This document shows positions 12,860 to 32,523 of a stretch of 64,000 nucleotides of DNA, piece by piece. The notes under the pieces are model-generated. The model worked only from the letters and a program-made list of their open reading frames with translations. It did no database searches and was not told where the DNA came from. The translations under genes were made by a program, and so were the position numbers. The stretch comes from an uncultured Candidatus Poseidoniales archaeon (GTDB lineage: Archaea > Thermoplasmatota > Poseidoniia > Poseidoniales > Thalassarchaeaceae), in the NCBI GenBank assembly GCA_963997805.1, contig CAXEOD010000001.1, forward strand, positions 3,635 to 67,634, read 5' to 3'. The first letter of the stretch is position 1, and every line of letters begins with the position of its first letter.

Positions 12860-13582
12860 CTACTCCGCTCTATCCGTTATGTGGGCTAGAGCCACATTGG
12901 TTTCCTGACCAGCAAGAAGTTGTTGCCAGGAATGGATACGATATAATTGAGAATTAATTGTGATTACTTCTTTCCCTATTACCTCAAAAGATTGTGGTGC
13001 AAGACCCATTCCAAGCCCTGTGGCTTTTTGAATAGCCTCTTTAACAACCCAAACCTGATTGGTTAGTGTGCTTGCTGTTTTGGGATTTTTATCCCATGCA
13101 ACCTCTAGTTTTGTCAATTCTTCTCCTGAAGCCATTAGTGGTAACAAATTACGTTGCCGACCAGAGTCTGGTTCTACATCAATTCCTACGGAAAGTTCAG
13201 TTGGGCCAATAATAGCAACGGCTAAGCCGCCGCTATGGGTAATAGAAATTGAAATAGGTTCTGGGCCAATTAGAATTGGCCTCCGGTATTCGTCCCTCTT
13301 GATTTGGTATTCTTTGATATCATATCCTTTTTGTTGTAATAGATAGCCAATAAGAAATCGGCCTGAAGCATGTTCTTCAGCACGCTTTGCAACTTTGAAT
13401 GACTGAGCCTCAATCGGGTCTACAAAATGAAGATTAGAGATATCGGGCATTGAATCGGTTGGTGAAGTGATTCGCGTCTTCATCCAGATAGCATGAAATT
13501 CTCCTTCAACCGTTTCTGGGAGATTCAAAGGAATGGGTTTTGAAGCCGGTTCCCACATCCCATTCACCAATTGGAAATTCAA
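12860..13582 (-). CDS. Sfp-type 4'-phosphopantetheinyl transferase
   Basis: PPTase motifs GIDVE…(Mg-binding) and W-VKEAIQKATG (WxxKEAxxK); lies immediately downstream of the megasynthase gene with a 4-nt gap. Confidence 0.8.
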   Translation of the reverse strand: MNFQLVNGMWEPASKPIPLNLPETVEGEFHAIWMKTRITSPTDSMPDISNLHFVDPIEAQSFKVAKRAEEHASGRFLIGYLLQQKGYDIKEYQIKRDEYRRPILIGPEPISISITHSGGLAVAIIGPTELSVGIDVEPDSGRQRNLLPLMASGEELTKLEVAWDKNPKTASTLTNQVWVVKEAIQKATGLGMGLAPQSFEVIGKEVITINSQLYRIHSWQQLLAGQETNVALAHITDRAE

Positions 13583-13586
13583 TTTT

Positions 13587-16500: not shown

Positions 16501-19500
16501 GGATACCCTGTGTGCTTTACAACAATTGAAAGAACACCTGACTCAACATCACTATCAGTATTCTCTAGGCTAGGAGGATTACTCACAACCGACTCTTCGT
16601 CCACAGTACTACTCTGCAAGGGTTGCTCTTCTTGGGGGTTTTGTTGCTCTTCCCTTCCCTCACCCATACTGACAATGTAACTAATCATGTGATTTAGTGT
16701 TGGATGTTCACGTAACTGAAATGAATCATCAACTGGCAAGGAGAATGTCTCCCGTAAGTCGGCCATTATTTCTGCCTGCTTAACCGTGTCAATTCCTAAT
16801 TCGCCTTCTAAGTCTTGGTCAAGTTCAATGAAGTCAGTAGGGTAACCTGTGTGCTTCGCAACCGTTTCCACTACCTGTTGTTCAAGACCCTCTGGATGTT
16901 CTCTAGCTGTTATTTCTGGAACTGTTTGACTTGCTTTCCCAGCAGGTGGAGTCTCCTCAGAGAATTCCTCTTTAACTTCCTGTTTTGGTGTTTCAACAGA
17001 TTGTGATGGACCTGATTTCGGAGGTTTAGGTGCTGAAAGGGCGGAATCAGGTTGCGCATCTTGAGCAGAAACCTCCCATTCACTACCTTCAACGCCACCT
17101 ATCAATGATTCATCCGGGGCAATGTATGCAACTAATTTCCGCTTCAATAAGCGTAATTCAACATCGTCACCGGCTTGATTGATTGCCCATTTCACAACAC
17201 TTTCTCTATCAACTCTATTCAGGGTTCTAGCAATTCTCTTGAACATTGTAAGAGCAATTTGACTGCCAAATCCTGCTGCATGACGGAGCATGTATTCGAC
17301 ATCATATTCTCCACCTTCAGAAAGCCTGAGGTTTCCTAAGGCAGGGTCGGGTTGTTGGAAGTTAGCAATCGGTGGTAACCGTCCTGATGCAAGTCCATAT
17401 AATCCGGTGGCATCTTCAACGCCAACACCCATCGGATGGCCTGTGAATCCTTTGGTATTAGTGATGATTAAACTCTCAGCCGATTCCTTGAAAGTGCCTC
17501 TAAGAGATTCAATCTCAGCAGCAGCCGAACCGCCTCTCGGAGGGGTAAATGGTTCATGCGACATAAATGTCGTTTTGGGGGCAATCTCATGTCTATCGAT
17601 ACCCCAACGGTTTTCCATTTCAGTCACGAACTCGTCAAAAGTTGAGGCTACATGAGTGACATCTAGCCTTGTAGGATGGAAGGCTGAATTACCTATGTGA
17701 GCACCCAATAATTCAGCGTACGGAACTACTCCTCTCTCATCAGCGTGATTTGATTTCTCTATTACAAAGGCAGCCCCACCCATACCTAGCAACATACCGT
17801 TGCGTCTTACATCGAATGGTAACGCTACTTCTTCCACTACATTCCCCATTGAATGGGCACCCGCAGCAGCGAAACCTGCACCAATCCATTCCATTAAATC
17901 GTCACCAGTTGAATCGTCACCACTGATGACAATCACTCTGTCGCATCGGCCTGAATCTAACCAATCCTCTGCGATTGCAAAGGCTGCTGGAGTGGATGCA
18001 CATGCGTTGTTAATAGCCAAATTGGGGCCGCGAGCACCAATCCATTGAGCAAACTGTGCGTGACCCATTGTTAGAATTTGAAGTAAGAACCTTCTATCGA
18101 AAGTACCATTCTCGTCAGACCCATTGTTTAGTGCGTGCCTCATGGCCATAGCTATACCTGGAAATACAGAGGCAAAAACCACGCCAGTTCTTTCACGAAT
18201 CGAGTTAGGAAGATTCCATCCTCTTACTAACCTCTTACCAGCACTACTAACCTGTTCAACTGGTAGAAGTGGAAGGGCAGCATCTTTGAGGGCCTCCAAT
18301 CCAGCAGCAAATGAAAGTGTAGTGGAAACATCCATTGCCGCCACTATTTTTGGATCGATCCCATACTGCTCTGCCAAATCAAAGTAACCACCGACTCCTG
18401 CTAGTTGAGGTATCGTAGCAAAGGAATCACAGGGTACGAATTCAGCTCTGCCATCCGGGTGTTTAACAATTCTAACCATATTTTTGTCAAGTAAACGCTG
18501 CTTGACATCATCAGGTAATTCGGTGATAAAGTTCTCTCCAGCAATGATTCTCTCTAATGCATCTGGATCGAATATTTCATCCATTCCCGGAAGACCAAGG
18601 CTTACTCCGGTCACCACATAGGGATTGGTTCTTCGTTCAGCATGGGGGTCTGAAGATAACGCAACACTTGTTGCACCTTTCACCTTTTGAGAAACTGTGA
18701 ATCCACTCGGAGGAGATGTCACCCACTCGTTTAGGGCTGCTAAGGATGTTAATTTGCTAGCATCAGCCGGACCTGACACAGATGCTTCAGAAGTGATGCT
18801 TGCTAGTAAATCAGATAACGTGTCATCAGTTATTCCAAGTGCTGAAAGATGGAGTTCACCTTTGATGAGGCGAGCGGGATAACCAGTAATATCTGAAATG
18901 CGGCTTGCAAGGTAACCCTCTTTGTCAACAACCTGTTGGACAACATGGTGTCCACTATCATTCGAAATTGTTTGATGTTGAATATTCTGAGATGTTGTCG
19001 CTAATTGGCCATTTGATGAGCCATCCGGTAGCGGTCTAGCGCGAACCCGTAATTCTTCCATCTCTTCACTACTAGAATCACCGCTAACAATTCCACTTTT
19101 CTGCCACACCTCCAAAGGTCCAGCCCTGAACCCTTCAGTGAGCCGGTTTGAATCAACCGAGTGCATTGATGGTACCCGTCCTGAAAGAGCACATACTGCT
19201 AGTGATGAAAGGAATGATGCTACACCTCCAACCTTAGGGTGGTTTGTGTTCGTTACAACCTTTGATTGTTCATCAAGAATCTGCTCGGTAAAAAGGGCTA
19301 ATGCTCGCTTTGGCCCAACCTCAATGAATAGGCGGCCACCTCGGCTATACATCTCTTGAATCTGCCTAGTCCATTCTACTGCAGACGACATCTGTGGCGC
19401 CAATTGACTTAGGATTGCATCGTGAACGGTTTCTCCATCCTCAAGACTTTCGGGATAGAATTTACCATCATAGTTAGCCGTGATAGGGATTGAAGGCAAT

Positions 19501-22070
19501 GACAAATCCAAACCTTCGAGGAAGCGACGAAGCGGTTTGTTGGCAGGCGCAACAATACGTGAGTGGAATGCGTGACTCGTCTGAAGAGTAACGCATGGAA
19601 TGTTCATTTCACCAAACCGCTGAATTGCATCTTGCATCGGTTCTGTTTCACCTGCAATGACTGCCATCATCGGAGAATTCTTGTTAGCAGCAATAATGTA
19701 ACCATCAACCGAATCGATTACCTCCTGAATTTTCTCAAGTGGTGCAGTGACGCTTGCCATCAATCCCTTATCATTCACTTCCACGCTACCCATTTCAGTC
19801 CCGCGAGCGGCCGCAGCACGCAGTGCGTCGTGGAATTTCATTATTCCAGAGACCATCAGTGCGGCGTATTCTCCTAAACTGTGTCCAGCAACCATGTCAG
19901 GGTTGATTCCATGCTCACTTAGCAATCTGTAAATTGCTAAATCAGCCGTCAACATCGCTGGTTGAGTGAATTCTGTTTGTTTCAACTTCTCTTCTGCAAC
20001 TTTTGTCTGCTCTTCAGTGAGGTTATCGCGCAGAACAAACTCAGAAAGTTTCTCACCTGCAAGAATTTCAGCCATGGTTGAATCAGCTTCATCCCACGTT
20101 TCACCAATCACTTCAAACCTCTTTGAGAGGTCTAGCGTCATACCAACATATTGACTACCTTGACCTGGGAACATCTGTACCAATTTTGCGTCGGCTGGCA
20201 GTGCTTCCTCTTCAGTAATGAAAACCATCTGTTTTGCTAGGAATGTCCATTTTGAGGGGTCTGAGATATTCTCACTGAGTAAATCCATTCTCTTAGCTAA
20301 TTGTTTCCAATTAGTCGCGACAATTCCACAGCGAGCACCTTGTGGCTCAAAATCAGATGACAAATCCGAAAGGACTGCTGAAAGTCTACGTCCGGCTGGG
20401 TCATCATCGAAATTTGAAATTGATGATGAGAAGAGAGTTGATTGAACACGTTCAATTTCTGAGGTTAAAGATTCAATACCATCAGCATTCAGAAGCAAGA
20501 TTCCTCCTTCAATCTCAAGTAATTCTTGATGGTTCATTGAAGGTGTTGTAGTTGAATCTAGTACGCTTGCAGCCGTTGGAACTTGGAATTGAGAAGGTGA
20601 ACTATTAGACAAACTTGCAACTAGGGATTTGTGGTGTTCTGGGTCGTACTGCTCAAGTGCACAATGGAAATTTGTCCCTCCAAAACCAAACGCAGACACG
20701 CCTGCACGTCTAGGTGCTTTAGATTGTGGAATTGGCCAATCAGAAGAAATTGTAGGGACATAAAATGGAATTTCGTCCCAATTGACTGAAGTATTTGGTT
20801 GCTCAAACCCTGCAGATGGAGGTAAGGTTCTGTGGTGAAGTGCTAAACTCGCTTTCAGTAATCCAGCCATTCCAGCAGCTGCTTTAAGGTGACCAATTTG
20901 ACTTTTTACTGATCCTACTGCAACAAAATCACCAGCGCCACGGTCTGCAAATACGCCAGCAAGTGTTGACAACTCTGTTGCGTCTCCAACCTTAGTGCTC
21001 GTTCCGTGGGCCTCAATCAATTCTACTGAGGATGGAGAATATCCAGCCTGCTGATATGCCCGCATAACTGCCTGCTTTTGACCTCTAGTTGATGGGGCTG
21101 TGATTCCTTTTCCTCTGCCATCACTTGAGGAACCTATTCCGCGGATGACGCTGTAAATTGTATCACCATCTGCAATAGCATCCTCCAATCGCTTGAGAAC
21201 AACACAACCTGCACCTTCGCCCATCACGAATCCATTGGCACGTACATCAAAGGGCCGGGAATGAAGTGGGGATAGGGCACCGATAGCGCTGAATTTAGCG
21301 TATGTCCCAGGATCCATAGTTCGGTCGCTTGCACCACATAACATCAAATCCGTTTGGCCAGTTTGTAGCATCTGGCAAGCCCCAACTAAAGCGGCAAAGG
21401 TAGAGGCACAAGCAGCGTCAGCACTGAAATTTGGGCCTTGTAAGTCAAGCAGATTGGCCACTCGGCCAGCGACTACGTTGGCTAATTCTCCAGCCATCGT
21501 GTCTTCATCAATTCGTGGAGTACCGTCAGTGATTGAATCTTTAAATTCTTCACTGTTAGTTGCTGGCATACCGGCTTCAACTGCCTTGCGTGCAATTTGG
21601 TCTGCGTAAACACGCTTACTTGACATCACTCGGTTTTCTCCACCTAAGGCATTAGCGAATATCACGCCACAACGAGCGTTTGGGAGTTGTAACCGACTGT
21701 TTTCACCAATATAACCAGCATCCTCCAATGCTGCGGCTGAAACCTCAACCGCCCACAATTGAGTATCATCAATTTGGGAAAGCGTTCCGGGCGGTTGTTT
21801 CCAACGCCGCCAATCAAACTCAAAATCTTCAACAAAAGCCCCAATCTTTGAGTAAGTTTTGCCTTCTATTGCACTTCCAGGTTCACCTTCAACCCAAAAA
21901 TCGTCGGGGTTCCACCTATCGTGAGGTACTTCACGAATTGAAACTTTGGCATTCAACACATTATCCCAGAATGACTCAATATCTGGTGCGTCTGGAAAAA
22001 TAGCAGACTGCCCAACTATCGCAATCGGCGCGAAAGGATATTGGGGGACTTCGTCCAGTTGTTCGGTCAT
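13587..22070 (-). CDS. PUFA-synthase/type I PKS-like multidomain megasynthase (2827 aa): KS - AT - ACP-like - KS - ACP - ACP - KR - DH
   Basis: KS1 (aa 12-475; Cys in DAACAST, His in EAHGTST and KSQIGHLKAAAG); AT (aa 630-960; FPGQGSQY and GHSLGE); ACP-like (aa about 1040-1095; TGYP…LGITDD); KS2 (aa 1150-1615; NNACAST); two near-identical ACPs (aa 1730-1800 and 1845-1915; HTGYP…DLEGELGIDTVKQAEIMAD); KR (aa 1965-2480; VSGGGSGVTAACIVGLAQANRG, YAAANCILD); PKS-type DH (aa 2510-2810; LEDHAIDNVPYHPG). Confidence 0.9.
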   Translation of the reverse strand: MTEQLDEVPQYPFAPIAIVGQSAIFPDAPDIESFWDNVLNAKVSIREVPHDRWNPDDFWVEGEPGSAIEGKTYSKIGAFVEDFEFDWRRWKQPPGTLSQIDDTQLWAVEVSAAALEDAGYIGENSRLQLPNARCGVIFANALGGENRVMSSKRVYADQIARKAVEAGMPATNSEEFKDSITDGTPRIDEDTMAGELANVVAGRVANLLDLQGPNFSADAACASTFAALVGACQMLQTGQTDLMLCGASDRTMDPGTYAKFSAIGALSPLHSRPFDVRANGFVMGEGAGCVVLKRLEDAIADGDTIYSVIRGIGSSSDGRGKGITAPSTRGQKQAVMRAYQQAGYSPSSVELIEAHGTSTKVGDATELSTLAGVFADRGAGDFVAVGSVKSQIGHLKAAAGMAGLLKASLALHHRTLPPSAGFEQPNTSVNWDEIPFYVPTISSDWPIPQSKAPRRAGVSAFGFGGTNFHCALEQYDPEHHKSLVASLSNSSPSQFQVPTAASVLDSTTTPSMNHQELLEIEGGILLLNADGIESLTSEIERVQSTLFSSSISNFDDDPAGRRLSAVLSDLSSDFEPQGARCGIVATNWKQLAKRMDLLSENISDPSKWTFLAKQMVFITEEEALPADAKLVQMFPGQGSQYVGMTLDLSKRFEVIGETWDEADSTMAEILAGEKLSEFVLRDNLTEEQTKVAEEKLKQTEFTQPAMLTADLAIYRLLSEHGINPDMVAGHSLGEYAALMVSGIMKFHDALRAAAARGTEMGSVEVNDKGLMASVTAPLEKIQEVIDSVDGYIIAANKNSPMMAVIAGETEPMQDAIQRFGEMNIPCVTLQTSHAFHSRIVAPANKPLRRFLEGLDLSLPSIPITANYDGKFYPESLEDGETVHDAILSQLAPQMSSAVEWTRQIQEMYSRGGRLFIEVGPKRALALFTEQILDEQSKVVTNTNHPKVGGVASFLSSLAVCALSGRVPSMHSVDSNRLTEGFRAGPLEVWQKSGIVSGDSSSEEMEELRVRARPLPDGSSNGQLATTSQNIQHQTISNDSGHHVVQQVVDKEGYLASRISDITGYPARLIKGELHLSALGITDDTLSDLLASITSEASVSGPADASKLTSLAALNEWVTSPPSGFTVSQKVKGATSVALSSDPHAERRTNPYVVTGVSLGLPGMDEIFDPDALERIIAGENFITELPDDVKQRLLDKNMVRIVKHPDGRAEFVPCDSFATIPQLAGVGGYFDLAEQYGIDPKIVAAMDVSTTLSFAAGLEALKDAALPLLPVEQVSSAGKRLVRGWNLPNSIRERTGVVFASVFPGIAMAMRHALNNGSDENGTFDRRFLLQILTMGHAQFAQWIGARGPNLAINNACASTPAAFAIAEDWLDSGRCDRVIVISGDDSTGDDLMEWIGAGFAAAGAHSMGNVVEEVALPFDVRRNGMLLGMGGAAFVIEKSNHADERGVVPYAELLGAHIGNSAFHPTRLDVTHVASTFDEFVTEMENRWGIDRHEIAPKTTFMSHEPFTPPRGGSAAAEIESLRGTFKESAESLIITNTKGFTGHPMGVGVEDATGLYGLASGRLPPIANFQQPDPALGNLRLSEGGEYDVEYMLRHAAGFGSQIALTMFKRIARTLNRVDRESVVKWAINQAGDDVELRLLKRKLVAYIAPDESLIGGVEGSEWEVSAQDAQPDSALSAPKPPKSGPSQSVETPKQEVKEEFSEETPPAGKASQTVPEITAREHPEGLEQQVVETVAKHTGYPTDFIELDQDLEGELGIDTVKQAEIMADLRETFSLPVDDSFQLREHPTLNHMISYIVSMGEGREEQQNPQEEQPLQSSTVDEESVVSNPPSLENTDSDVESGVLSIVVKHTGYPEDFLELDQDLEGELGIDTVKQAEIMADCREHFSLPVDESFQLRDYPTLADMISYIDSMRGGEPVVSEVTVDSEPEEKEVLSAKPELEVVEPSPSENPVESTVRRWVVEVEEADESEAHPIDMAGSYIIVTDDSWGLGNAICEQLESSGSEAVRLMLDPSITSKIKIEKDGGIDIIRLDPGNQDHLSQFGEIIADLDIAGVIHTAPCTLAGIAWAEVTSQQQTQMVCHGLFGVLQQIDAKLANRSDGIVCSISALDGRHGNGGYRFNPLGAGAHGIVKSFGRERPNIRARAIDVAPELLVNADKLAATILSEIEYMGPRELGIDGDGRRWQVCIYDEPHESEPQSLNSEDVFIVSGGGSGVTAACIVGLAQANRGIGCHFALLGRTKLDDSLSSLADASDEVLQQMKMELRKQMQRDSKSGNVTIVEWEKAWSKIERSINIHKTLSDIEESGNTATYHACDVTVSKQVRKVLKKLKKKRSPITGIIHGAGIEDSKMVADKDWDTFSNVMSVKVDGWQSLVNAVKDHSTQLRYCCAFTSIAGRFGNGGQTDYAAANCILDAEMSRLAHIESEPHGVALAWTGWQDVGMATRGSIERVFEEAGIETVSVEQGVSLFVDEVMRGGKRRVVLAGNLGVLNDDGSDREPPQRLPPDVSALLADAKRFPFVDKVVAHQPFDTLSYECTIDVNSYPFLEDHAIDNVPYHPGVMALEMFSQGAQLLWPPCTVIGFAGVRFGLPIKLLKQEQKLRVVAEFSHQNSENVWVKCRLESDLMTKSGEIFGEPTIHHNGLVRMLKRDADRGLLKLPSIGTPSRGGVVLGSDFVYQRFFHGPRFQSHGGILGGCSIDDMFGADGIALSRHQLANTNQFLVGDVTLEAQPMLIEACFQNAGMVAMEIDGLQSLPVGIEMLELIRTPEKTDSLRMRAVRRGAEDDGVTIHDCLVVDQDGKPVVSMKGLRLKGMAPISEGESFSLNRN

Positions 22071-22079
22071 ATTACCACC

Positions 22080-22955
22080 TCAATCTGAGATACTGTCTGG
22101 TACCATAATGCTAGAATATCCAGCATCAACGTGAATTATTTGTCCTGTGACACCTGAAGACAAGGGTGAGGCTAACCAAGTTGCACACCCTGCAACATCT
22201 TCCTGTGTGACGTTTCGACGTAATGGTGAATTCCTCTCTACATGGGCGAGAATGTCATCAAAGCCAGGAATACCCCCTGCCGCTAAGGTTTTGATCGGCC
22301 CTGATGAAATTGCATTGACTCGGTGACCATCTGGGCCAACATGATTTGCAAGTTCACGAGTCCACGCTTCTAATGCTGCTTTTGCTATACTCATCACACC
22401 ATAGTTTGGCACCCATCTAGTTGAGGCCGCATAGGTTAGAGTGATTGTTGAAGAGTTGGGAGCTAGATGTGGCAAAGCGTAGCGCATCACTCTTTGTAGT
22501 GAATGAGCGCTGATTGTCATAGCAGTGTTCATCGGGTCATTTTCAACGAACAACACTGGTCGGTCAAAACATGGGCGTGGAGCAAATCCGATAGCATGAA
22601 TGACAATATCTGCTTTTGCACCCGGGTTGGCATTTTGCCACTCTGTGAAAAATTCGGCTGTCAATTCATTGGTTTCAACATCAATTGGATAAAATGCTTC
22701 AATAGCATCTAGTTTCTCTTTTAGTTGAAATACACGGCTCATAAATCGCTTCTGAAAACCAAGTATTAACTTACATCCAGCCGCTGCTAATTGCTCGCAT
22801 ATAGCCCACGCAATACTGTCTTCGCTTGCTACACCAAATACTAGTGCAGTTTTTCCCTTTAGTTCCAACATAAAAGCACCTGTTCCTACCAACATCGGTT
22901 CGCCGGCGAAGACGCCTTCAAGACCTTTGCCCACCCTGTGAGACAACAGCGTCAT
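22080..22955 (-). CDS. FabI-like enoyl-(acyl-carrier-protein) reductase (SDR), probable trans-acting ER for the megasynthase
   Basis: LKGKTALVFGVASEDSIAWAICEQLAAAG (FabI N-terminal signature) and catalytic Y-x6-K YGVMSIAKAALEAW; 10-nt gap to the megasynthase. Confidence 0.8.
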   Translation of the reverse strand: MTLLSHRVGKGLEGVFAGEPMLVGTGAFMLELKGKTALVFGVASEDSIAWAICEQLAAAGCKLILGFQKRFMSRVFQLKEKLDAIEAFYPIDVETNELTAEFFTEWQNANPGAKADIVIHAIGFAPRPCFDRPVLFVENDPMNTAMTISAHSLQRVMRYALPHLAPNSSTITLTYAASTRWVPNYGVMSIAKAALEAWTRELANHVGPDGHRVNAISSGPIKTLAAGGIPGFDDILAHVERNSPLRRNVTQEDVAGCATWLASPLSSGVTGQIIHVDAGYSSIMVPDSISD

Positions 22956-23136: not shown

Positions 23137-24018
23137 TCATTCATATTCGCCATACAATGCCTCGGGCAGATCAATGTGGATTGCACTCAACACTGCTTCT
23201 GCATCCAATCCTCTGCCAATTAGAGAAGTTGCAAGAGCTTGGGTTCTTCGAGGCACCGTCTTTGGACCAAGTACTGCTCCAGGCCTACGTGGGTCATCCA
23301 TGTAATCAGTTTCCATTAGGAACCCGCCTTCATTTTGCCATATTGTATCAGAAATATCCTTGATTGAATCACGTCCAACCACTACAGAAGAAGTCAAGCC
23401 ATGAGTGAAATTTTTACTGATATCTGCATCGGCATGGTGGTGAATTGCACCGAACCTTGGGAAACCTACATGGTCACAAATATTAGCAATTTCACGGTTA
23501 GTTTTTTCACCATTAGCGTCGAGATGGAGTTGAGCAGGAACATTTGCCCTTTTACACATTGAAAGGACTTCAATCAAAATCTCATCAGCCTGATCTAATA
23601 CTTCATCACCCACATCCCAGTGAGGGCGACCTACTTCACCAACTCCAACCGCCAAATTTTCTTCACAAAATTCAATTGCTAATTCAACCGCTTGAAGATG
23701 TAATTCATTCGATTCTTCATTACCTAACGATGCACACTGATGAACCCATGCAGCAGGGTGGGGACCGAGCACAACCCGAACCCTCAAATCACATTCCAAG
23801 CGAACTTGTTCAGCCATTGCTACAGTGTCTTGGTATGCCTTTCGTACTTCCTCAACATTATTTGGTAGGTTGTCAAAATCTGGCTTGTGAACTAATACTA
23901 AATCGGTACCGCCAACACGCTGAAAATCAGCCGCAGCATCAAGATAACGTCCAACTCTATCTAAGTGAAAATGGTTGTCTAAAATAGGGCCATTCCAGTG
24001 CCCATCAACAAGAGTCAT
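23137..24018 (-). CDS. TatD-family metal-dependent hydrolase (amidohydrolase superfamily)
   Basis: N-terminal LDNHFHLD (HxH metal site) and a conserved His/Asp/Glu pattern along a 293-aa TIM-barrel-sized protein. Confidence 0.5.
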   Translation of the reverse strand: MTLVDGHWNGPILDNHFHLDRVGRYLDAAADFQRVGGTDLVLVHKPDFDNLPNNVEEVRKAYQDTVAMAEQVRLECDLRVRVVLGPHPAAWVHQCASLGNEESNELHLQAVELAIEFCEENLAVGVGEVGRPHWDVGDEVLDQADEILIEVLSMCKRANVPAQLHLDANGEKTNREIANICDHVGFPRFGAIHHHADADISKNFTHGLTSSVVVGRDSIKDISDTIWQNEGGFLMETDYMDDPRRPGAVLGPKTVPRRTQALATSLIGRGLDAEAVLSAIHIDLPEALYGEYE

Positions 24019-24027
24019 TGTGGCGCC

Positions 24028-24654
24028 TCACGATTCTTCTTCTTCTTCTACTTCAAGGGCGGCTTCTTCAGGCTCTGAATCAACTTTTTCTTCGGTCCCA
24101 TTAGATTTTACCAGAACTTCAACGAATAGACCCTCAGCATCAAATCTTGTACCCCAATGTGTGGCCGCCATCTCAACCAAATTTTTGTGTCTAGCACCAA
24201 GAGCAATTCCAAGCCCATTTGAAAAGAATAGTAAATCCATATCGTGCAACTTATCACTAATACGAATACACTCAAGTCGCTCGTCTTCCTCAAATTCCGG
24301 ATAGTATTCTGAAACCTGATCAGTTCGTAGTGGTTGACCATAGTCAAACGAAACTACGAGAGGACCCTTCTCAGTGGTAATCCCTTCATCAGGCCTGCCT
24401 AATCGGAGTAACATTTCACGAGCCGCTGCCCAAGCAATCTCTGAATGATTTGTGCCATGTACTACCAGCCTTCCCTCTTCGTCAACTAGCAGAGTTGCAC
24501 GTGGATTCTTAAGAGCCAGTATCACATACTTACCACTCTTCTTTCCTCCTAGAGTTTTGATGACCTCCTCGGCCTCAAATGGTTGAGGGGCTGTGAACCT
24601 GACCAATTGGTTCTCTACCCTGACTTTGATAGCACTTCGACGACCCATTCTCAC
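24028..24654 (-). CDS. Divergent TATA-box-binding protein (TBP)-like protein with two repeats and an acidic C-terminal tail
   Basis: Two roughly 85-aa repeats that line up with TBP repeats (IKVRVENQLVRF…PRATLLVDEEGRLVVHGTNHSE…AAREML ; PLVVSFDYGQP…YYPEFEEDERLECIRISDKLHDMDLLFFSNGLGIALGARHKNLVEMAA) compared with canonical …IENIVAS…[20 protein letters not shown]… / …[13 protein letters not shown]…[19 protein letters not shown]…; followed by an EEEEEES tail. Confidence 0.45.
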   Translation of the reverse strand: MRMGRRSAIKVRVENQLVRFTAPQPFEAEEVIKTLGGKKSGKYVILALKNPRATLLVDEEGRLVVHGTNHSEIAWAAAREMLLRLGRPDEGITTEKGPLVVSFDYGQPLRTDQVSEYYPEFEEDERLECIRISDKLHDMDLLFFSNGLGIALGARHKNLVEMAATHWGTRFDAEGLFVEVLVKSNGTEEKVDSEPEEAALEVEEEEES

Positions 24655-25433
24655 TCCTCCAACCCGACTGCTTCAACTGCTTCCACTTCTACGTTAGTCT
24701 TGAGCGTTGCGAGTATATCACCCATCCAATCTTGGTAAATTGGGACAATCAACACTGGTTCTTCTTTGATTGATGAAAGATTTGCAAGTGCCCCCCGTAG
24801 ACGGCTTGCAAACCTGCGATTTCTCCTCTCTTGCAATTCAACTGTAGAAAATGATTCCGAAATTCGCCACCAGGTTCCTGCTAATCCTGCCGCTATAGCC
24901 AGTGATTCCGAACCTTTTGATATTGGAGGTTCACTAACTTCTGGTTGAGTACGCTTCCATGTTTTTGCAAATCGCCGCCGAGCAAATAATTGCAAAAACA
25001 AACGAGACAATTTTGCAGCCTCATCCGCAGTTGCTTCCAACCAAGCAAGCCAATCCTCATCTTCAACCCCTGGCTCTATGAAATAAGTGGGAATACTATC
25101 CCTATCCGCCAACTTGAGTAAGCGGCGAGGCTCTGGGTCAGGAAATTTCGGTCCCTTGACATCTTCTAACAACTGCATACGAATCAACATCCGCGCTAAA
25201 TCACCGCCACCGTGAATTGCCAATATGGTTGAAGATCCCTTTCCAGACTTCTCCATCTTCTCTTCATCCTCCCAAGATTCCCGCTCTTCTGGATGTAGTA
25301 ATAATGCAAGCCCATCCCAATCATCTCTTGGACGAAGAATACGTGGTAATACAACCGTAGGGATGTAAGGGAAAAATCGAATTACCCCACCATCAGGGTC
25401 ATTCCAATCCACCGATTGCCAAGGCCAAGACAA
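24651..25433 (-). CDS. Hypothetical protein (operon with the acyl-CoA dehydrogenase and the TBP-like gene)
   Basis: 260-aa ORF overlapping the downstream gene by 4 nt; acidic; no recognisable motif. Confidence 0.4.
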   Translation of the reverse strand: MSWPWQSVDWNDPDGGVIRFFPYIPTVVLPRILRPRDDWDGLALLLHPEERESWEDEEKMEKSGKGSSTILAIHGGGDLARMLIRMQLLEDVKGPKFPDPEPRRLLKLADRDSIPTYFIEPGVEDEDWLAWLEATADEAAKLSRLFLQLFARRRFAKTWKRTQPEVSEPPISKGSESLAIAAGLAGTWWRISESFSTVELQERRNRRFASRLRGALANLSSIKEEPVLIVPIYQDWMGDILATLKTNVEVEAVEAVGLEE

Positions 25434-25442
25434 GAGAACACC

Positions 25443-26648
25443 TCAACCTAGAATTGATGAATCTTTAGCTAAATCTTTGGTGATATTCTTCTGATGACTC
25501 TCTAAAGTCCCACCACCAATTTCGAGGAGTTTTGCGTCACGCCACAATCTCTCAACCACATATTCGCCAACATAACCGTAGCCACCCATTACTTGCATTG
25601 CTCGGTCAGCAATATCTTTTGCTAGTGTTGTTGATACCAACTTTATCCCATCGGAATCCAACCGATTGCCGCTCTGCTCTACATCCATTTGTCTAGCTAC
25701 ATTGTAGAGATATGCCTCCATTCCACGCCATTCAGCGAATGATTGGCCGATGTAACGTTGTATCTGACCGAAATCTCTGATTGGCCGTCCAAATGCTTCT
25801 CTCTCAGAAGCATAGCGATTCATTTCTTTGACTGAGCGGCGAGCAATTCCTAGACTCATCGCCGCTAAAGTAAGCCGTTCTAATTCCAGATTACGCATCA
25901 TATGAATCATTGATTCACCGCACGCGCCAACGAGACTATCAGGGCCAACTACACAGTCATCATAGACTAACTCCGCAGTGTTGGAGCCTCGCATTCCAGT
26001 TTTGTCAACAATCTTTTGACCAACTGAAAAACCAGGTGAGTCTGCGAACACAAGGAAGGTCGATATCTCAGCCCTACCGTTTTCATTCACGCCTGTTTTA
26101 GCATAAGTCCAAACAACATCACAAGGTGTACCTTCTTCATCGATGCAGCCATTAGTTATCCACATTTTACGTCCGTTGATGACCCAATTACCGTCATCTC
26201 TTTGCTGAGCAGTAGTGCTCATTGACATCACATCTGTACCAACATCTGGTTCAGACATTGCCATTGCTCCTATCCACTCGCCACTGCAAACTTTGGGAAG
26301 TATCTCTTGCTTCTGAGTTGAATTACCATTACGTGAAAGGTTGTTGACAAATAGCATACTATGGGCAAGATAAGCTAATGCAAAGCCTGGGTCACTATAG
26401 GATAATTCCTCGTGAACAATTGCCGCGGCTAATGCGTCCATTCCAGCCCCACCGTACTCCTCTGGAGCAGTAATTCCAAGAAGTCCTAGTTCACCCATAT
26501 CACGTAATAATTGAAGATTGAACTTCTCATCTCGGTCAAACTCAAGTGCTTGTGGCTCAACTTCTGAACTGACCCAGTCACGGACCATCTCTCTTAGCAT
26601 CGCATGTTCTTCAGTCGGGTTGGTGATGTCAAGCGTCTTGTAATCCAC
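25443..26648 (-). CDS. Acyl-CoA dehydrogenase
   Basis: 401 aa with the ACAD N/M/C domain pattern (…WITNG…, …GGYGYVGEY…ERLWRDAKLLEIGGGT…). Confidence 0.85.
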   Translation of the reverse strand: MDYKTLDITNPTEEHAMLREMVRDWVSSEVEPQALEFDRDEKFNLQLLRDMGELGLLGITAPEEYGGAGMDALAAAIVHEELSYSDPGFALAYLAHSMLFVNNLSRNGNSTQKQEILPKVCSGEWIGAMAMSEPDVGTDVMSMSTTAQQRDDGNWVINGRKMWITNGCIDEEGTPCDVVWTYAKTGVNENGRAEISTFLVFADSPGFSVGQKIVDKTGMRGSNTAELVYDDCVVGPDSLVGACGESMIHMMRNLELERLTLAAMSLGIARRSVKEMNRYASEREAFGRPIRDFGQIQRYIGQSFAEWRGMEAYLYNVARQMDVEQSGNRLDSDGIKLVSTTLAKDIADRAMQVMGGYGYVGEYVVERLWRDAKLLEIGGGTLESHQKNITKDLAKDSSILG

Positions 26649-26679: not shown

Positions 26680-29600
26680 TCACTTGTTCTCTCGCACCCA
26701 ATCCTGAAGTTGTTGCAGTGACCATCCTTGGTCAAAGTAACCTTGAATCGTTGCATCATCCCAGAATGGGAATAGACGCTTTGCTCGGTCCATCTTTGAA
26801 TCCCCTCCAGCAGGAGGCCCATCACCATACCCAGGTGGACCACTACTCTGAGTGGCATAGTCAGCACTACCGCCAGTTTCAGCGCGAGCAGGCCCTCTTG
26901 ACATCGGAGTTACAGCCTCGCCAGCAGGCAAATAATCTTCATCCTCAACGAAGAAATCACCCTCTTCTTCGGATTCTCTTCCTACGTACATCATGATACC
27001 AATTACTAATGCGACAAGAACTAAAATTACAGCAGCAATGCCACCATAAAGTGCCCAGTTGGTTTCAGTACCTCCAGAACTACCTGCTTCACGAATATGG
27101 AATGAAGGTGACTCACCTAATTCATTACCAGCAGCATCGTGTATTTTGAACATAACAGATGAAACAGGTTGCGGGAAAGCTTCAACTTGTACTCTACAAA
27201 TATTATTCATTGCAGGAGTAAAAGTTGTACCACATGAGTAGTTGAAGTTGCTTAATTGGCGGCCTTCAATCACCGTGAAGATTTGTAATTCTAATTCTCC
27301 GGAATCAGTACCAATATTGGTTACATCAACGAGCAGTTCGAATGGTTGTCCTGCCTCTGGTTGACCAGGTGAAATGATAATTTTGTTGATAACGAATTCA
27401 GCTTCCTTGTAGGTTAATGAGTAATCACCACCCTCAACGGCAGCACCAAATTGTCCACCAAGAGCAATACCGTTTCCTGCTGAATCGGTGCCTGTAACCC
27501 AGAACCTCAAATCAACGCCATCAAGGTCTGATGGTAATTCATGGCCAGGCCACAAATCAACACAGTTACCAATTGCACGATTTGGTGATGCTGACAAATC
27601 AAGTTGAAGATCAGCAGACTGCCAAGCATCTGGGAAAGTCGAGCGATATTGACTCCAATTCAAATCGTGCTCGTAGTACATCCAGTTGATTTTCATTGAA
27701 CCTGCTACTAGTTTCTGTCTCTCCTCTATTGCGAAATTGATGTTGACGCAATGAATTGTTGAAGATGGCAGAATATCATTATACTCTTCAGCATCAGAGC
27801 CAGCAGCCAATTGCCATGAATTCCAGACTACAGTGGGTGCCTCATTGTCGACCTTCACATAGAAGGTTTTGTCACCAGTCATTGAGAAATCGTTGGCCCC
27901 TGCTGGCAATGTGTCCTCACAATCTGGATTGTTTACATCCGTTGAGTCGCATACTCTGAAGACATATCGATATTCGTTGGTTGATAATGCCGCTGGAATA
28001 ACCAAGTCAAATGTTCCATTTTCAAAATTATAGTAGAAGACTTCTGTAGCTGCAGCCACATATCCGCTTCCAGGATTATCGGATTCACCACCAGGATAAA
28101 CTGGAGTTCGAGTCAATTCCATTGTCATTGGAATTTCAGGTTGAACGTCAATTCCTGACTCTAATGCAGCCTTGAAGAAGTATTTACCATGGAATTGTAA
28201 TAAATCACCGGGGCGAACAAAGCCACCATCTTGAGAACCAACTGAGTTTGTGATGAAACCTGAAGTATCATCAATAGTTAGAGATTCACTATCAAACTTC
28301 AAACCAGAAGAATATGCCAATAGTTGGATATAGCGACTGCTTGAAAGTTTGCTCTCACCATTCTCTGGATCCAAATCCTTCATGAAAATTTCAGGAGTTA
28401 TCACTCCCTGCAGATTAACCACACCCCAACGCATACGTATCGGTATGTCAACTAAGAATTCTGTCTCAAACGGGTCAATTAGTGCGGTGCCATCCAAGCG
28501 TGTTATACGTGGTCCGATTCCATCCACCTCAGCATTCAAAATATCTGCTGAAGTACTTTCACTCCAAGAAGTTCCGTTGCGAGGTGAGAAGTAAACCACG
28601 AGGTCATTACTAATTGCAGGGTTAAGATCAACTTTGACGTAATCTACATCTCTCCAACCGTTATCGTCAGTACCCTCAACCAACAAATGGTACACATTCC
28701 CAGCATACACTGATTTGTTGAACTCTGTCAAGGGGTTTCCACCAGCATCGCCAACATGGAATGAGTAAATTCCCGGAGGGCGAGATTGCCTGCCGATGTA
28801 GGTAATCAAATCTGATATGAAACCTCCATCTCCGCCATCGATTGAATTACCGGAAATATCAGTACCAGAAACAAACAAACTCGTGCGAGGAGCTGGTTCG
28901 CCGTTGGGGACTGTCAAACCGGTTTGACGGTCGTCAATGCAATCATTTGTTGGTGGACAAGCCAAGTTTGAGATGAAGTAAGTTGTATTTCCATTAACAT
29001 CAGTTGAATCCTCATCAAGAGGTACCGACTGATATTCACTCAAATCTGGAATTCTATCTCCGTTAATATCGTGTTGTGCTTCAACCCAGTAATTCAAAAC
29101 GAATGAAGGGGGAGTCTCAGGAATATCCCTAACCATGACTCGGAACTTTTGGTTAGCCTGAGGTGGTATCCAAGTATCGTCCGCGAGATCTCTCCAGTTC
29201 TGTAATCCCATCACGCTGATGTTGATGAGATAGGGTGAATACTGGTCAATGTAAACTGTCATTGGAATGCCACATTCTACATCAGGTGAAAGGGAAACAG
29301 GAGGGCAATTAGTATCGCCACCAGTATAATTGTCCATGCGTAGCCGATAGGTGTCGTTTCCTGCTGAAAGTTCTGGTATTGCAGGTTGCCACGAGAAGTT
29401 ACCCCCGAGGGTACCTGGGAGTCGGTCAATTTCGTTCCATTGGCTAATATTTGAGTCATTCTGCAATTCAAAGACAAGGGTGTAAGATGCAGGATCAGGA
29501 GCTACTCCTAAGTCCTCAAAACGCACAGTCCCTTCCAAAGTCAACTCATTATTGCTGTGAACATTCTCTAAGTCATTCTGAACTGCATCTGCTTGGTTGT

Positions 29601-32523
29601 AAACTGTCAAGGTAGTAATAGATGCATCATTCTCAACTGCATTACCAACCAATAAATCAAACATTATTGCCGCAGGAAGTCCTTCAGAGCCTGTATCAGT
29701 GATTAGTGTGGCGAACAATCTTGCAGAATTAGAATCATCCCATATTGGGTTTATTCTGAAACGCCAAGTTATCTGTTTACCATTTGCGGTATCAGTCGAA
29801 CTTGACAGAGCGACCATTATGGAAACAAATTCAGATCCACTTTCTGACCAAAATGAACCATTACTTGCAGCCCAACGAAGTTCTGCCCAGCCACTTTCTG
29901 ATTCAAATTGTAGGCTTGCACCAGCGATGGATGTCCCTGTTTCAACAGCAACAGAATGGGTTGTAATTACTTCATAAACCTCACCAGAAGCATAGAATCC
30001 AGTGATATCATCACTCATATTTATGGTAGAATCATATCCATTCTCAGTGTTAATTAGAAGATTATCTAGGACTATGCCACCACCATCATCGGAAGTGAAT
30101 TTCATAGGCACTACAACTTGACCACCCATAGGCTGGCCAAGAGCTACTCCTTGATTCAATTCACGAGCAATTCCATTCTCGTCAGAGAGTGCCCTACTCC
30201 ATGTGTAAAAGATATCAAGGTCTTTCAGATTGATACTTGTAGCAGCCTGAGCAGTTGGATTCTCGAACTTGAAACGGAACTGAATCCATTCGTTCCCATA
30301 TGCATCAATGTGGCCCACTGGCACATTGGGGTCGTCTAACAAAGCCTGTACATGATGGTAAAATTCTGAAAATTCTGAACCAGCGTCGGGAGTTCTCCTG
30401 CTCACATCTCGAGTATATCCAAGATTCTGTGATGAAGGACCAGCCAATAACTCAATTGAAGCATTTCCAATAGCGGAATTATCCCACGATAATTCAGCGT
30501 GATTGACGACTGCTCCCTTTGGCAAGAAGAAGACTGCTCCTTCTGCAACACCATTGATATTCATCGCTAAAGTGGTGTTGTCTGCACCATAATTGATTCC
30601 ATTTACCATCTGTGTCCTAAACATTTGTTGGCGCCCTAGTGAACCAAATGCACTCTCGACCATTCCCCATTCAATATCGCCATCACCGGCAACATCAAGC
30701 TTGACATTTGACATTGTGTGCGCAAATCTAAGTTCCAACCAAATTGAGTAAACGGTACATTGGTCAGAGTATTGTGCCCCGAAGGCCACCATTGTTGATG
30801 GTGAAGAAAATGTCACCCATTGATTATTTACAGGGGTGAACTGTCCTGACTGATTACTATTAGCAAACAATATCAGATTGCGATTCGCAGATCCACAAGA
30901 ATCCTCAATAATTGGTTTCACAGCCATTATCGGAGCACTGAAACGGTTTTTCTCCAACATGGGTGACCAACTGGTATCGTTCATTTTCGGCACATATACA
31001 ATCATGCCACCAGTAACGTCGACGGTCCATTCACCATTATTCAAGTATCCCCCCTCACGAAATACCCCATCAGTAGAGTTGAGGCCAGTGCCGATTTTTG
31101 TTCCAAGGGTAAAACTATACATTATCGGAGTATTCATTCGATTTCCGCCAGAATTATAATTAAAACGAAGGTCGATTAATCCATATTGATCGCTATCAAT
31201 ATCCCAAAGCTCAATCAATTCACCTTCTAAGCCATTCATTGGTTTACCATATTTATCAACAACTGTTTGACCATTTGAAGCATCTAGAACATCAACGGTA
31301 AAAGATCCCGGTCCGGCACTAGCAACCTCAACATCAAGAATCCCATAGCCATTCGGGAATCCAGGATTAGGGTGAGAACGCGGAGCAAATGATTTCATCA
31401 CTACGTTTCCTGATTGAGGTAATGCATCACCTATTCTGAGTGAATCAATATACCACCCAGGCATTGAACTATTTATTGGAGTCCCTAGCAGTGGATTTTT
31501 CTCCATTACGAACTTCAGTTTCACATATTTACCTTCATGTGGTGAAAGGTCAAGAGCAATGTTCGCCCAGCCATTTTGGTTGTTTGCCCACGTACTCATT
31601 CCAGCTAAAACCCAAGCGTCTGCCGGCACTGCAAGAGAACCTTTCCCATTACAAGCTGTCCCAACTTGGTTGACTCCAGTTCCCTTCTGAAATAATCCTT
31701 GAGTTCCCTGCTGTAACCCAGTTGTTGCTCCGATGTCAATGCCAATAAATTCCCAAGGCGACCAACCAACAGCATCAGATGAATTTTGAACAGCAACATA
31801 AGCACAGTCTTCGTAATATTTGTTGCTGCCAGTTGCTACACGATTGTAGAGACTGTGGTAAGAATTGAAAGTCGCTGCTCCTTTAGTTGGAAAGACCCAA
31901 ATGGCTGGACTATCCATTGTATATTCGTAACTTGGCTCTGGTGCATCATCTGTGTAATCAGGGTCATCAAAATTAGTGCCCCAACAATAGTCTCCGGTTG
32001 CGCAACCAGATGCTGGAATATGCATCATTCCTTGTGTTTTCCTTTCCCAATTGAATATGTCCACTGGCATTTGAGGACTCATTCCTTGACTCCCAGTTTC
32101 AAAGTCGGCATTGAATCCCTTGCTCGTTAGAGACAAGGTGGGTGATGTGGATGAGAAAGAACAATCCATAGGATTTGCTGCGTGACAATTAGCATCGTTG
32201 TATGTGGTTAATCCGCTGTTGTAGCGAGCATCCCAAATTCCTCCACCCCCTGATGGCATGAGAGATTGGTCGTATGTTGTGAAATCGTCATGCATGGCAA
32301 AACCAGTTGAAACATTAACGCTTGCTGAAGTAATCGTTTCCCCTTCTGGGAGTGAAATCGCTCCTGTCATACTATCCATAAAATTGCCCGGTTCTCTCAA
32401 TTCAACCTCAACACTAGCAGTCCCATCTGAAAATGTTGTAACCGATGCTGCGGCTGCTGTGGTTGAAAGAATCATCAACCCAAGGATGAGGTAACTGGTG
32501 GCCTTCTTATTCTTGTCATTCAT
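26680..32523 (-). CDS. Giant (1947 aa) cell-surface protein: signal peptide, large extracellular region, C-terminal TM anchor and cytoplasmic Gly/Pro-rich tail
   Basis: N-terminal signal (YLILGLMILSTTAAAAS); C-terminal TM helix (LYGGIAAVILVLVALVIGIMMYV) followed by an EEEGDFF… tail; GGAGAG RBS 6 nt before the ATG. Confidence 0.7.
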   Translation of the reverse strand: MNDKNKKATSYLILGLMILSTTAAAASVTTFSDGTASVEVELREPGNFMDSMTGAISLPEGETITSASVNVSTGFAMHDDFTTYDQSLMPSGGGGIWDARYNSGLTTYNDANCHAANPMDCSFSSTSPTLSLTSKGFNADFETGSQGMSPQMPVDIFNWERKTQGMMHIPASGCATGDYCWGTNFDDPDYTDDAPEPSYEYTMDSPAIWVFPTKGAATFNSYHSLYNRVATGSNKYYEDCAYVAVQNSSDAVGWSPWEFIGIDIGATTGLQQGTQGLFQKGTGVNQVGTACNGKGSLAVPADAWVLAGMSTWANNQNGWANIALDLSPHEGKYVKLKFVMEKNPLLGTPINSSMPGWYIDSLRIGDALPQSGNVVMKSFAPRSHPNPGFPNGYGILDVEVASAGPGSFTVDVLDASNGQTVVDKYGKPMNGLEGELIELWDIDSDQYGLIDLRFNYNSGGNRMNTPIMYSFTLGTKIGTGLNSTDGVFREGGYLNNGEWTVDVTGGMIVYVPKMNDTSWSPMLEKNRFSAPIMAVKPIIEDSCGSANRNLILFANSNQSGQFTPVNNQWVTFSSPSTMVAFGAQYSDQCTVYSIWLELRFAHTMSNVKLDVAGDGDIEWGMVESAFGSLGRQQMFRTQMVNGINYGADNTTLAMNINGVAEGAVFFLPKGAVVNHAELSWDNSAIGNASIELLAGPSSQNLGYTRDVSRRTPDAGSEFSEFYHHVQALLDDPNVPVGHIDAYGNEWIQFRFKFENPTAQAATSINLKDLDIFYTWSRALSDENGIARELNQGVALGQPMGGQVVVPMKFTSDDGGGIVLDNLLINTENGYDSTINMSDDITGFYASGEVYEVITTHSVAVETGTSIAGASLQFESESGWAELRWAASNGSFWSESGSEFVSIMVALSSSTDTANGKQITWRFRINPIWDDSNSARLFATLITDTGSEGLPAAIMFDLLVGNAVENDASITTLTVYNQADAVQNDLENVHSNNELTLEGTVRFEDLGVAPDPASYTLVFELQNDSNISQWNEIDRLPGTLGGNFSWQPAIPELSAGNDTYRLRMDNYTGGDTNCPPVSLSPDVECGIPMTVYIDQYSPYLINISVMGLQNWRDLADDTWIPPQANQKFRVMVRDIPETPPSFVLNYWVEAQHDINGDRIPDLSEYQSVPLDEDSTDVNGNTTYFISNLACPPTNDCIDDRQTGLTVPNGEPAPRTSLFVSGTDISGNSIDGGDGGFISDLITYIGRQSRPPGIYSFHVGDAGGNPLTEFNKSVYAGNVYHLLVEGTDDNGWRDVDYVKVDLNPAISNDLVVYFSPRNGTSWSESTSADILNAEVDGIGPRITRLDGTALIDPFETEFLVDIPIRMRWGVVNLQGVITPEIFMKDLDPENGESKLSSSRYIQLLAYSSGLKFDSESLTIDDTSGFITNSVGSQDGGFVRPGDLLQFHGKYFFKAALESGIDVQPEIPMTMELTRTPVYPGGESDNPGSGYVAAATEVFYYNFENGTFDLVIPAALSTNEYRYVFRVCDSTDVNNPDCEDTLPAGANDFSMTGDKTFYVKVDNEAPTVVWNSWQLAAGSDAEEYNDILPSSTIHCVNINFAIEERQKLVAGSMKINWMYYEHDLNWSQYRSTFPDAWQSADLQLDLSASPNRAIGNCVDLWPGHELPSDLDGVDLRFWVTGTDSAGNGIALGGQFGAAVEGGDYSLTYKEAEFVINKIIISPGQPEAGQPFELLVDVTNIGTDSGELELQIFTVIEGRQLSNFNYSCGTTFTPAMNNICRVQVEAFPQPVSSVMFKIHDAAGNELGESPSFHIREAGSSGGTETNWALYGGIAAVILVLVALVIGIMMYVGRESEEEGDFFVEDEDYLPAGEAVTPMSRGPARAETGGSADYATQSSGPPGYGDGPPAGGDSKMDRAKRLFPFWDDATIQGYFDQGWSLQQLQDWVRENK

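Follow-up and report, generated by a model that had tools for sequence, protein, structure and literature searches.

Several described systems offer points of comparison for the divergent TBP-like protein reported here. Eukaryotic TLF/TRF2 (TBPL1) is a TBP-fold paralog that has lost the TATA-kinking Phe residues and coexists with a canonical TBP; the archaeal protein is of independent origin and is not an ortholog of it. To our knowledge, the TBP paralogs of Halobacterium and Methanosarcina stay recognisably canonical and keep their Phe pairs, whereas in Poseidoniales it is the copy at the ancestral position that was remodelled. As in Marine Group II (MGII) archaea, genomes of Halobacterium (TbpA-F) and Methanosarcina (TBP1-3) encode multiple TBPs, which presumably divide the labour between them (PMC2121645, PMC5501381). 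The poxviral factor VITF-3, an atypical TBP/TFIIB-like heterodimer (PMC12917281), joins a divergent TBP-fold protein to a dedicated partner, much as is proposed below, although no TFIIB/cyclin similarity is detectable in the Poseidoniales partner. Single TBP domains also occur fused to catalytic domains, as enzyme appendages (RNase HIII N-domain, AlkA N-domain; PMC3597702), whereas the TBP-like protein has two repeats, stands alone and carries no catalytic domain.

The nearest reference remains the canonical archaeal TBP itself, represented by Pyrococcus woesei (1PCZ/1AIS) and by the TatD-linked TBPs of Methanomassiliicoccales and Thermoplasmata. The two-repeat saddle and the core length are common to both kinds of protein, and the canonical genes of Methanomassiliicoccales and Thermoplasmata occupy the same position upstream of TatD as the TBP-like gene does. 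The differences lie in identity (about 20%), in the residues through which canonical TBP handles DNA (set out below), in scores that fall below the Pfam and NCBIfam thresholds, and in the coupling to a lineage-specific partner gene. It is well known that archaea may have multiple TBPs, and annotation pipelines already tag members of this family as TBP. The combination of an ancestral-position copy without Phe pairs, an orphan partner and conservation across an ocean clade appears to be undescribed, and the literature on MGII/Poseidoniales and TBP yielded no paper describing the protein.

The window, meaning the whole 64,000-nucleotide stretch of DNA analysed, belongs to a chromosome of Poseidoniales (Marine Group II, Thalassarchaeaceae) and is apart from the features listed below an ordinary archaeal chromosome (Nop56/58, PCNA, Orc1/Cdc6, FBP aldolase, GlpX, MoaC/E, SdhAB).

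Table. Features of the window around the TBP-like gene, with side observations from the same stretch.
Feature	Position	Strand	Remarks
TBP-like gene	24028..24654	(-)	208-aa ORF; probable true start ATG 24648, giving 206 aa
TBP repeat 1	24391..24633	(-)	residues ~8-88; from alignment with 46 canonical TBPs, yeast and P. woesei
TBP repeat 2	24127..24381	(-)	residues ~92-176; from family profile and alignment with canonical TBPs
Acidic C-terminal tail	24031..24120	(-)	residues 179-208, net charge -11
Orphan ~260-aa partner	24651..25433	(-)	directly upstream of TBP-like gene
TatD-related metal-dependent hydrolase	23137..24018	(-)	PF01026; K07049/arCOG00893 in published tables
Acyl-CoA dehydrogenase	25443..26648	(-)	Pfam match; lineage-specific neighbour, outside the conserved unit
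PKS/PUFA-synthase-like megasynthase	12860..22955	(-)	2827 aa; KS, AT, ACP, KR, DH; counterparts L001 10716-16543, L008 12613-20531
Predicted surface protein	26680..32523	(-)	~1950 aa; counterparts L001 1304-7183, L008 3225-8948
ORF, 293 aa	8282..9163	(-)	no Pfam match; nearly coextensive with the next
ORF, 314 aa	8289..9233	(+)	no Pfam match; opposite strand to the preceding
ORF, 601 aa	35091..36896	(+)	no Pfam match; unannotated 477-559-aa counterparts at the same syntenic position in L004 and L006
ORF, 883 aa	45255..47906	(-)	no Pfam match
ORF, 207 aa	42271..42894	(+)	no Pfam match
ORF, 286 aa	3727..4587	(+)	no Pfam match

The longest reading frame of the TBP-like gene opens at GTG 24654 (window 24646-24654). 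Homologs start (MARK...) at what is its third codon, ATG 24648, and that codon is preceded, at about 8 nt, by GGAGGA; on both counts the true start is probably ATG 24648, with which the TGA stop of the partner falls 2 nt before the TBP-like ATG and the two genes do not overlap.

Taken by itself, the protein sequence is that of a borderline TBP. Its match to Pfam PF00352 (E=3e-4, 21.0 bits) stays under the 22.9 cut-off and covers residues 42-82, in one repeat, and its scores against the NCBIfam TBP equivalogs are 13-16 bits where the cut-offs are 270-278, which places it below both sets of curated thresholds; in a phmmer search of the PDB the best matches were all TBP (E=5.8e-5). Other members of the family score up to E=2.5e-13 on PF00352, and a profile from the 37-member family alignment (A1) found 35 PDB matches, every one a TBP, with the best at E=7e-11 and both repeats in register. 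The AlphaFold2 model (mean pLDDT 88.9) runs twice through the pattern S1-H1-S2-S3-S4-H2 (S-H-S-S-S(-S)-H), and the best 44 Foldseek matches in the PDB were all TBP (E down to 4e-12, target-normalised TM 0.7-0.8), a poxviral PIC chain following as a distant match at rank 47. Model, Foldseek and family profile concur on two tandem TBP domains in a saddle fold. The preliminary description, made from the letters of the window and its reading frames, had recognised this two-repeat architecture by alignment, and the best structural matches and the profile search alike led to TBP, rather than to another fold or an unrelated family.

That description had also noted an acidic C-terminal end, and the tail is real. 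Its pLDDT of 52-63 in the model is consistent with disorder, and together with a conserved L-[DE]-[VIL]-x-[ED] motif it is common to the Thalassarchaeaceae homologs and specific to that branch. Some archaeal TBPs, for example that of P. woesei, are also acidic-tailed.

Extreme divergence and the loss of canonical functional residues might be expected of a decaying relic, left behind when an ancestral TBP was displaced. We find this hardly credible, given a dN/dS of 0.04-0.07 against close homologs, which indicates strong purifying selection, and a reading frame that is intact in 80/80 marine metagenome loci; moreover, the new residues R19, G97 and T54 are invariant in the family, the AlphaFold2 model is confident and the gene is transcribed. 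The gene was found with 100% identity in the metagenome contig JYMV01043584.1.

Close homologs (64-95% identity, 202-210 aa), all of them acidic-tailed, are named Thalassarchaeaceae or Poseidoniales, and more distant relatives (43-50% identity, ~180 aa) are named Poseidonia. When 1.84 billion representatives were searched exhaustively with phmmer, just 59 relatives came up, so the family is a narrow one; it is confined to Poseidoniales-type marine Thermoplasmatota, and in the family search the gene was ubiquitous and single-copy. NCBI calls the product a hypothetical protein, JGI assigns it to TBP/COG2101 and Prokka labels it plain TBP, and neither kind of name conveys that the family is a distinct paralog. 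Three database entries (P0079, P0081, P0140) join part of the TBP-like protein to the C-terminus of the partner or to an acyl-CoA synthetase fragment, and seem to be artefacts of frameshift or chimeric assembly, not genuine fusions. P0132 (1851 aa, six weak matches) was considered as a relative and rejected as an unrelated repetitive protein.

On the minus strand of the window, the order of genes is surface protein (1947 aa), acyl-CoA dehydrogenase, 260-aa hypothetical, TBP-like gene and TatD, followed after a 181-nt gap by a FabI-like reductase, a PKS-like megasynthase (2827 aa) and a phosphopantetheinyl transferase. A gap of 9 nt separates the end of the acyl-CoA dehydrogenase from the partner, the partner stop lies 2-4 nt from the TBP-like start, and TatD begins 9 nt past the TBP-like stop, which bears out the tight packing with a hypothetical gene, an acyl-CoA dehydrogenase and a TatD-like hydrolase that had been seen at the outset. 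The further reading of these genes as a metabolic operon does not survive comparison across Poseidoniales. In a scan of marine metagenomes with the TBP-like family alignment as bait, which gave 80 loci, partner, TBP-like gene and TatD were complete in 73, the other 7 being cut by contig ends; the partner was present in 77, the remaining 3 being cut at the contig end. It is found in L001-L009, always immediately upstream of the TBP-like gene, and across loci the members of the trio are separated by 1-9 nt or overlap by 4 nt. No acyl-CoA dehydrogenase stands between the surface protein or 4HBT gene and the partner in L001-L009, a set that includes L008 and the MGIIa loci L001-L003, where the trio occurs without it. 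In L004-L007 the surface protein, the acyl-CoA dehydrogenase and the PKS are all absent from the position of the trio, which is flanked by a 4HBT thioesterase gene on one side and by ABC transporter, PCNA, TFS, Nop and fibrillarin genes on the other. The conserved unit is thus the trio of orphan ~260-aa protein, TBP-like gene and TatD, and because this trio is all that travels together across lineages, the apparent operon of the window is an accident of lineage-specific insertions.

The same comparison bears on the idea that the TBP-like protein is a dedicated regulator of the surrounding fatty-acid, PKS and acyl-CoA genes. In the window the gene is indeed co-directional and packed with an acyl-CoA dehydrogenase, a FabI-like reductase and a PKS-like megasynthase; but in L004-L007 the trio is flanked by other genes (4HBT, ABC transporter, PCNA, Nop, fibrillarin), and PKS, surface protein and acyl-CoA dehydrogenase are all lacking there, the acyl-CoA dehydrogenase is missing at the MGIIa and L008 loci, and the presence of the trio does not correlate with the PKS cluster across genomes. 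Comparative gene order contradicts a role in regulating the neighbouring lipid genes, and we give that explanation very little credence.

The lipid-type genes merit mention in their own right. Here an archaeal chromosome carries the megasynthase together with genes for a FabI-like enoyl reductase and a 4'-phosphopantetheinyl transferase, and this PKS cluster is conserved in MGIIa and in the L008 lineage and absent from the same position in L004-L007. The large predicted surface protein, with an N-terminal signal/TM segment and a C-terminal TM segment and with no Pfam domain on record in related loci, occurs at a conserved place upstream of the trio in lineages that have the PKS.

As for the partner, a 35-sequence profile found no match in Pfam or the PDB, and no TFIIB/cyclin similarity was detectable in these searches; a single-sequence structure model was unusable (pLDDT 47.7). 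Promoter and TATA sequences upstream of the trio were inspected and offered nothing interpretable.

The association of TBP with TatD is older than the TBP-like gene. A scan of GTDB genomes with a TatD alignment gave 80 loci, nearly all labelled Thermoplasmatota (Methanomassiliicoccales, Thermoplasmata, Aciduliprofundum, Methanomethylophilaceae and others), of which 73 had enough upstream sequence. In 45/73 the gene immediately preceding TatD, in the same orientation, encodes a fully canonical TBP (225-296 bits against the canonical profile). The best canonical TBP of the exhaustive search is one of a small group (P0136/P0224), one member of which (L010) is followed 2 nt later by TatD. With canonical TBP next to the orthologous TatD in these 45 loci and in L010, TBP and TatD are an old pair in Thermoplasmatota, which makes the Poseidoniales TBP-like gene the positional ortholog of canonical Thermoplasmatota TBP; the pairing predates the divergence of the TBP-like gene. 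The partner gene is absent from the 80 other Thermoplasmatota loci and was seen in Poseidoniales-type loci alone. The TatD of the window has 34% identity to the TatD of other lineages, compared with 54% among those lineages.

Upstream of the orthologous TatD, a TBP of any kind was not detectable in 28/73 loci, including L013-L016, L054, L055, L068 and L085-L092; these belong to Methanomethylophilaceae, Aciduliprofundum and some other Thermoplasmatota, in which the gene pair is broken. Two further variants were met among TatD-linked TBPs. P0224 (L010 10001-10561), with P0136, P0226 and P0230, comes from a rare Thermoplasmatota-like lineage whose TatD-linked TBP has all four Phe, and P0224 and its relatives have an atypical first repeat, 'ALVFEDGGVVVTG'. 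Outside Poseidoniales, Thermoplasmatota MAG244 (L049 3072-3608, plus strand; JBFMEL010000073.1) carries a strongly divergent TBP-like gene 145 nt upstream of TatD, with a PF00352 score of 22.7 bits, just below the cut-off, and 'LLLESGR' in place of 'LLFxSGK'; this gene suggests that the TatD-linked TBP was remodelled more than once.

The extent of remodelling in Poseidoniales was read from a MAFFT alignment of the TBP-like family (37 sequences) with 46 canonical positional orthologs, P. woesei TBP and yeast TBP. Identity to the positional orthologs is 19.5% for the window protein, 39.9% for yeast TBP and 45.6% for P. woesei TBP, in keeping with the initial impression of a divergence far beyond what is usual among archaea. 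In yeast numbering, F99, F116, F190 and F207 are each Phe in 46/46 canonical sequences. In the TBP-like family, F99 is lost by a 4-residue deletion (37/37), F116 has become Asp58 (35/37) and F190 Leu127 (36/37), and of the four-Phe intercalating set the equivalent of F207 is kept, as Phe or Trp in 37/37 and as Phe144 in the window protein. The pairs whose conservation bears on DNA intercalation have therefore survived at one position and gone at three. Of the minor-groove Asn/Thr set, the N69 equivalent is retained (N in 44/46 canonical sequences; Asn15 in 33/37 of the family); N159 (N in 45/46) is replaced by Pro98 (34/37), T124 (T in 45/46) by His66 (36/37), and the T215 position by L, S or A. 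At yeast T/S73, where 43/46 canonical sequences have S, the family has Arg19 without exception (37/37). Repeat 1 has accordingly lost both kinking Phe, and Arg19, Asp58 and His66 are new there and near-invariant, while Leu127, Pro98 and the retained Phe144 belong to repeat 2; R19, G97 and T54 are new residues that are invariant in the family.

Given the established relation of structure to function in TBP, the loss of three of the four kinking Phe, with Asp in place of one, makes it unlikely that the protein bends TATA DNA in the canonical manner. In the TFB-contact motif E186-x-E188-L/Q189 (L189 is Q in archaeal TBPs), the family has D124 (36/37), a variable residue at E188 and R126 (35/37); with the motif partly kept, binding of TFB would seem uncertain. 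Within the family, columns that face the concave side, as assigned by homology to yeast TBP and not from coordinates, are at least as conserved (0.73) as core-facing ones (0.67), with repeat 1 the most strongly conserved. This conserved face, and an orphan partner that is co-located and probably co-translated, suggest a new ligand, which may be nucleic acid or protein. One sequence, P0101, had seemed to mark a gradient towards canonical TBP through an apparent Phe in S3; this was rejected, as the Phe lies one column off and the sequence, at 17.6% identity, is no closer.

Published genome tables supply a second TBP. For MAG SIMO Bin 19-2, Damashek et al. 2021 (PMC9723583, Suppl. Table S3) list two TBP genes, tbp_1 and tbp_2. 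The first, to which neither BlastKOALA (KO) nor eggNOG gives an assignment, is flanked by a TatD-related deoxyribonuclease (K07049, arCOG00893) and by an 810-nt gene without annotation, and a 4HBT thioesterase and an ABC transporter are close by; its locus is the trio of partner, TBP-like gene and TatD. The second (714 nt, ~237 aa) is assigned to K03120, COG2101 and arCOG01764, adjoins mevalonate kinase and has MG2_1477 of the Iverson MGII genome as its eggNOG seed ortholog. Field metatranscriptome coverage in the first two samples of the same table is 0.54 and 3.18 for tbp_2 and 0.23 and 0.19 for tbp_1, so that tbp_1 is transcribed, whereas coverage of TatD is near zero. Tully 2019 (PMC6336850, suppl. 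file 12) gives a KEGG TBP function in 0.94 of MGIIa and 0.93 of MGIIb MAGs, and since tbp_1 receives no KO in the Damashek table, this core function is presumably of the tbp_2 type. From these database assignments we infer that tbp_2 keeps its Phe pairs and acts as the general factor. The Rinke 2018 supplements held nothing relevant to a second TBP, and no canonical TBP was found in a scan of viral contigs. Among the matches listed in a search of proteins with a two-sequence canonical profile there were relatives of P0232 and Thermococcales alone; P0136 as search bait had at least 13 matches.

The search for a second, database-recognised TBP, to which the preliminary description pointed, thus ends at a K03120/COG2101/arCOG01764 copy at another locus in the published MGII MAG tables. 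Of the two possibilities that had been offered at the start, an extremely derived general factor or a paralog recruited to a specialised role, a second TBP elsewhere in about 94% of MGII genomes favours the paralog. The TBP-like protein could still be the general TBP of Poseidoniales, derived to an extreme, with the K03120-type tbp_2 as an accessory paralog: it holds the ancestral TBP position beside TatD, and its gene, which the family search showed to be ubiquitous and single-copy, is strongly constrained by purifying selection. Such an assignment of roles seems quite improbable, however, when three of four Phe, N159 and T124/T215, invariant or nearly so in the 46 canonical orthologs, are gone, and when the second TBP, which KEGG, COG and arCOG all recognise, belongs to the MGII core and has the higher transcript coverage in the one MAG table.

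A stronger competitor leaves transcription aside. The TBP-fold protein and its partner might serve the TatD-related hydrolase as a module for nucleic-acid binding or targeting, for instance in DNA/RNA processing or repair, a role that single TBP domains play in RNase HIII and AlkA-type glycosylases. Such a module would fit the close packing of the trio (spacings of 1-9 nt or overlaps), its universal conservation, and the loss of the DNA-kinking residues from a protein whose concave face is conserved. Yet TBP is paired with TatD where the TBP is fully canonical too, and adjacency alone is therefore no proof of joint function; TatD coverage is near zero in the MAG table in which tbp_1 is transcribed; and the best structural matches of the model are full two-repeat TBPs and not single-domain enzyme appendages, with no RNase HIII- or AlkA-type protein among its significant Foldseek matches in the PDB. 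We hold this role with TatD in nucleic-acid processing to be unlikely, while ranking it as the main rival, ahead of the minor one in which the protein is still the general TBP.

The evidence agrees best with two TBPs in Poseidoniales-type archaea, the TatD-linked copy having been rebuilt once the second had become available. On balance it appears probable, if well short of assured, that the protein is a neofunctionalised TBP paralog, the copy in the ancestral slot having been rebuilt beside a second, general TBP, and that it works with the partner as a specialised factor. In the mechanism we infer, general TATA recognition would be carried out by the second TBP, and the TatD-linked copy, thereby freed, would have taken on a new function as a TBP-like factor without canonical TATA kinking, most likely in complex with the presumably co-translated partner. 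A different DNA target, or a protein, would be bound through the conserved concave face in repeat 1 and the repeat 2 stirrup, the partner and a TFB paralog being candidate protein ligands, and the result would be a specialised or regulatory branch of transcription initiation. By analogy with eukaryotic TRF2/TLF, such a specialised or regulatory role in initiation is the one we favour. A more specific version, which we offer as speculation and think rather doubtful, is that the ancestral TBP, displaced by the second, was rebuilt with a newly arisen partner into a two-subunit TBP-fold factor that would act at promoters without TATA kinking or, alternatively, keep RNA polymerase or a TFB paralog bound within a regulatory complex.

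Few proteins of archaea and eukaryotes are as conserved as TBP, and the copy at the ancestral position in these genomes has diverged further from its orthologs than has yeast TBP; its kinking residues are lost, yet the gene is tightly constrained beside a dedicated orphan partner. If the two-subunit factor is real, it would be an archaeal analogue of TRF2/TLF or VITF-3 in one of the most abundant archaeal groups of the surface ocean. If the protein is an alternative initiation or regulatory factor, the family would constitute a natural experiment in how a basal factor gains a new function, and would open a way into how uncultured Marine Group II archaea control transcription.
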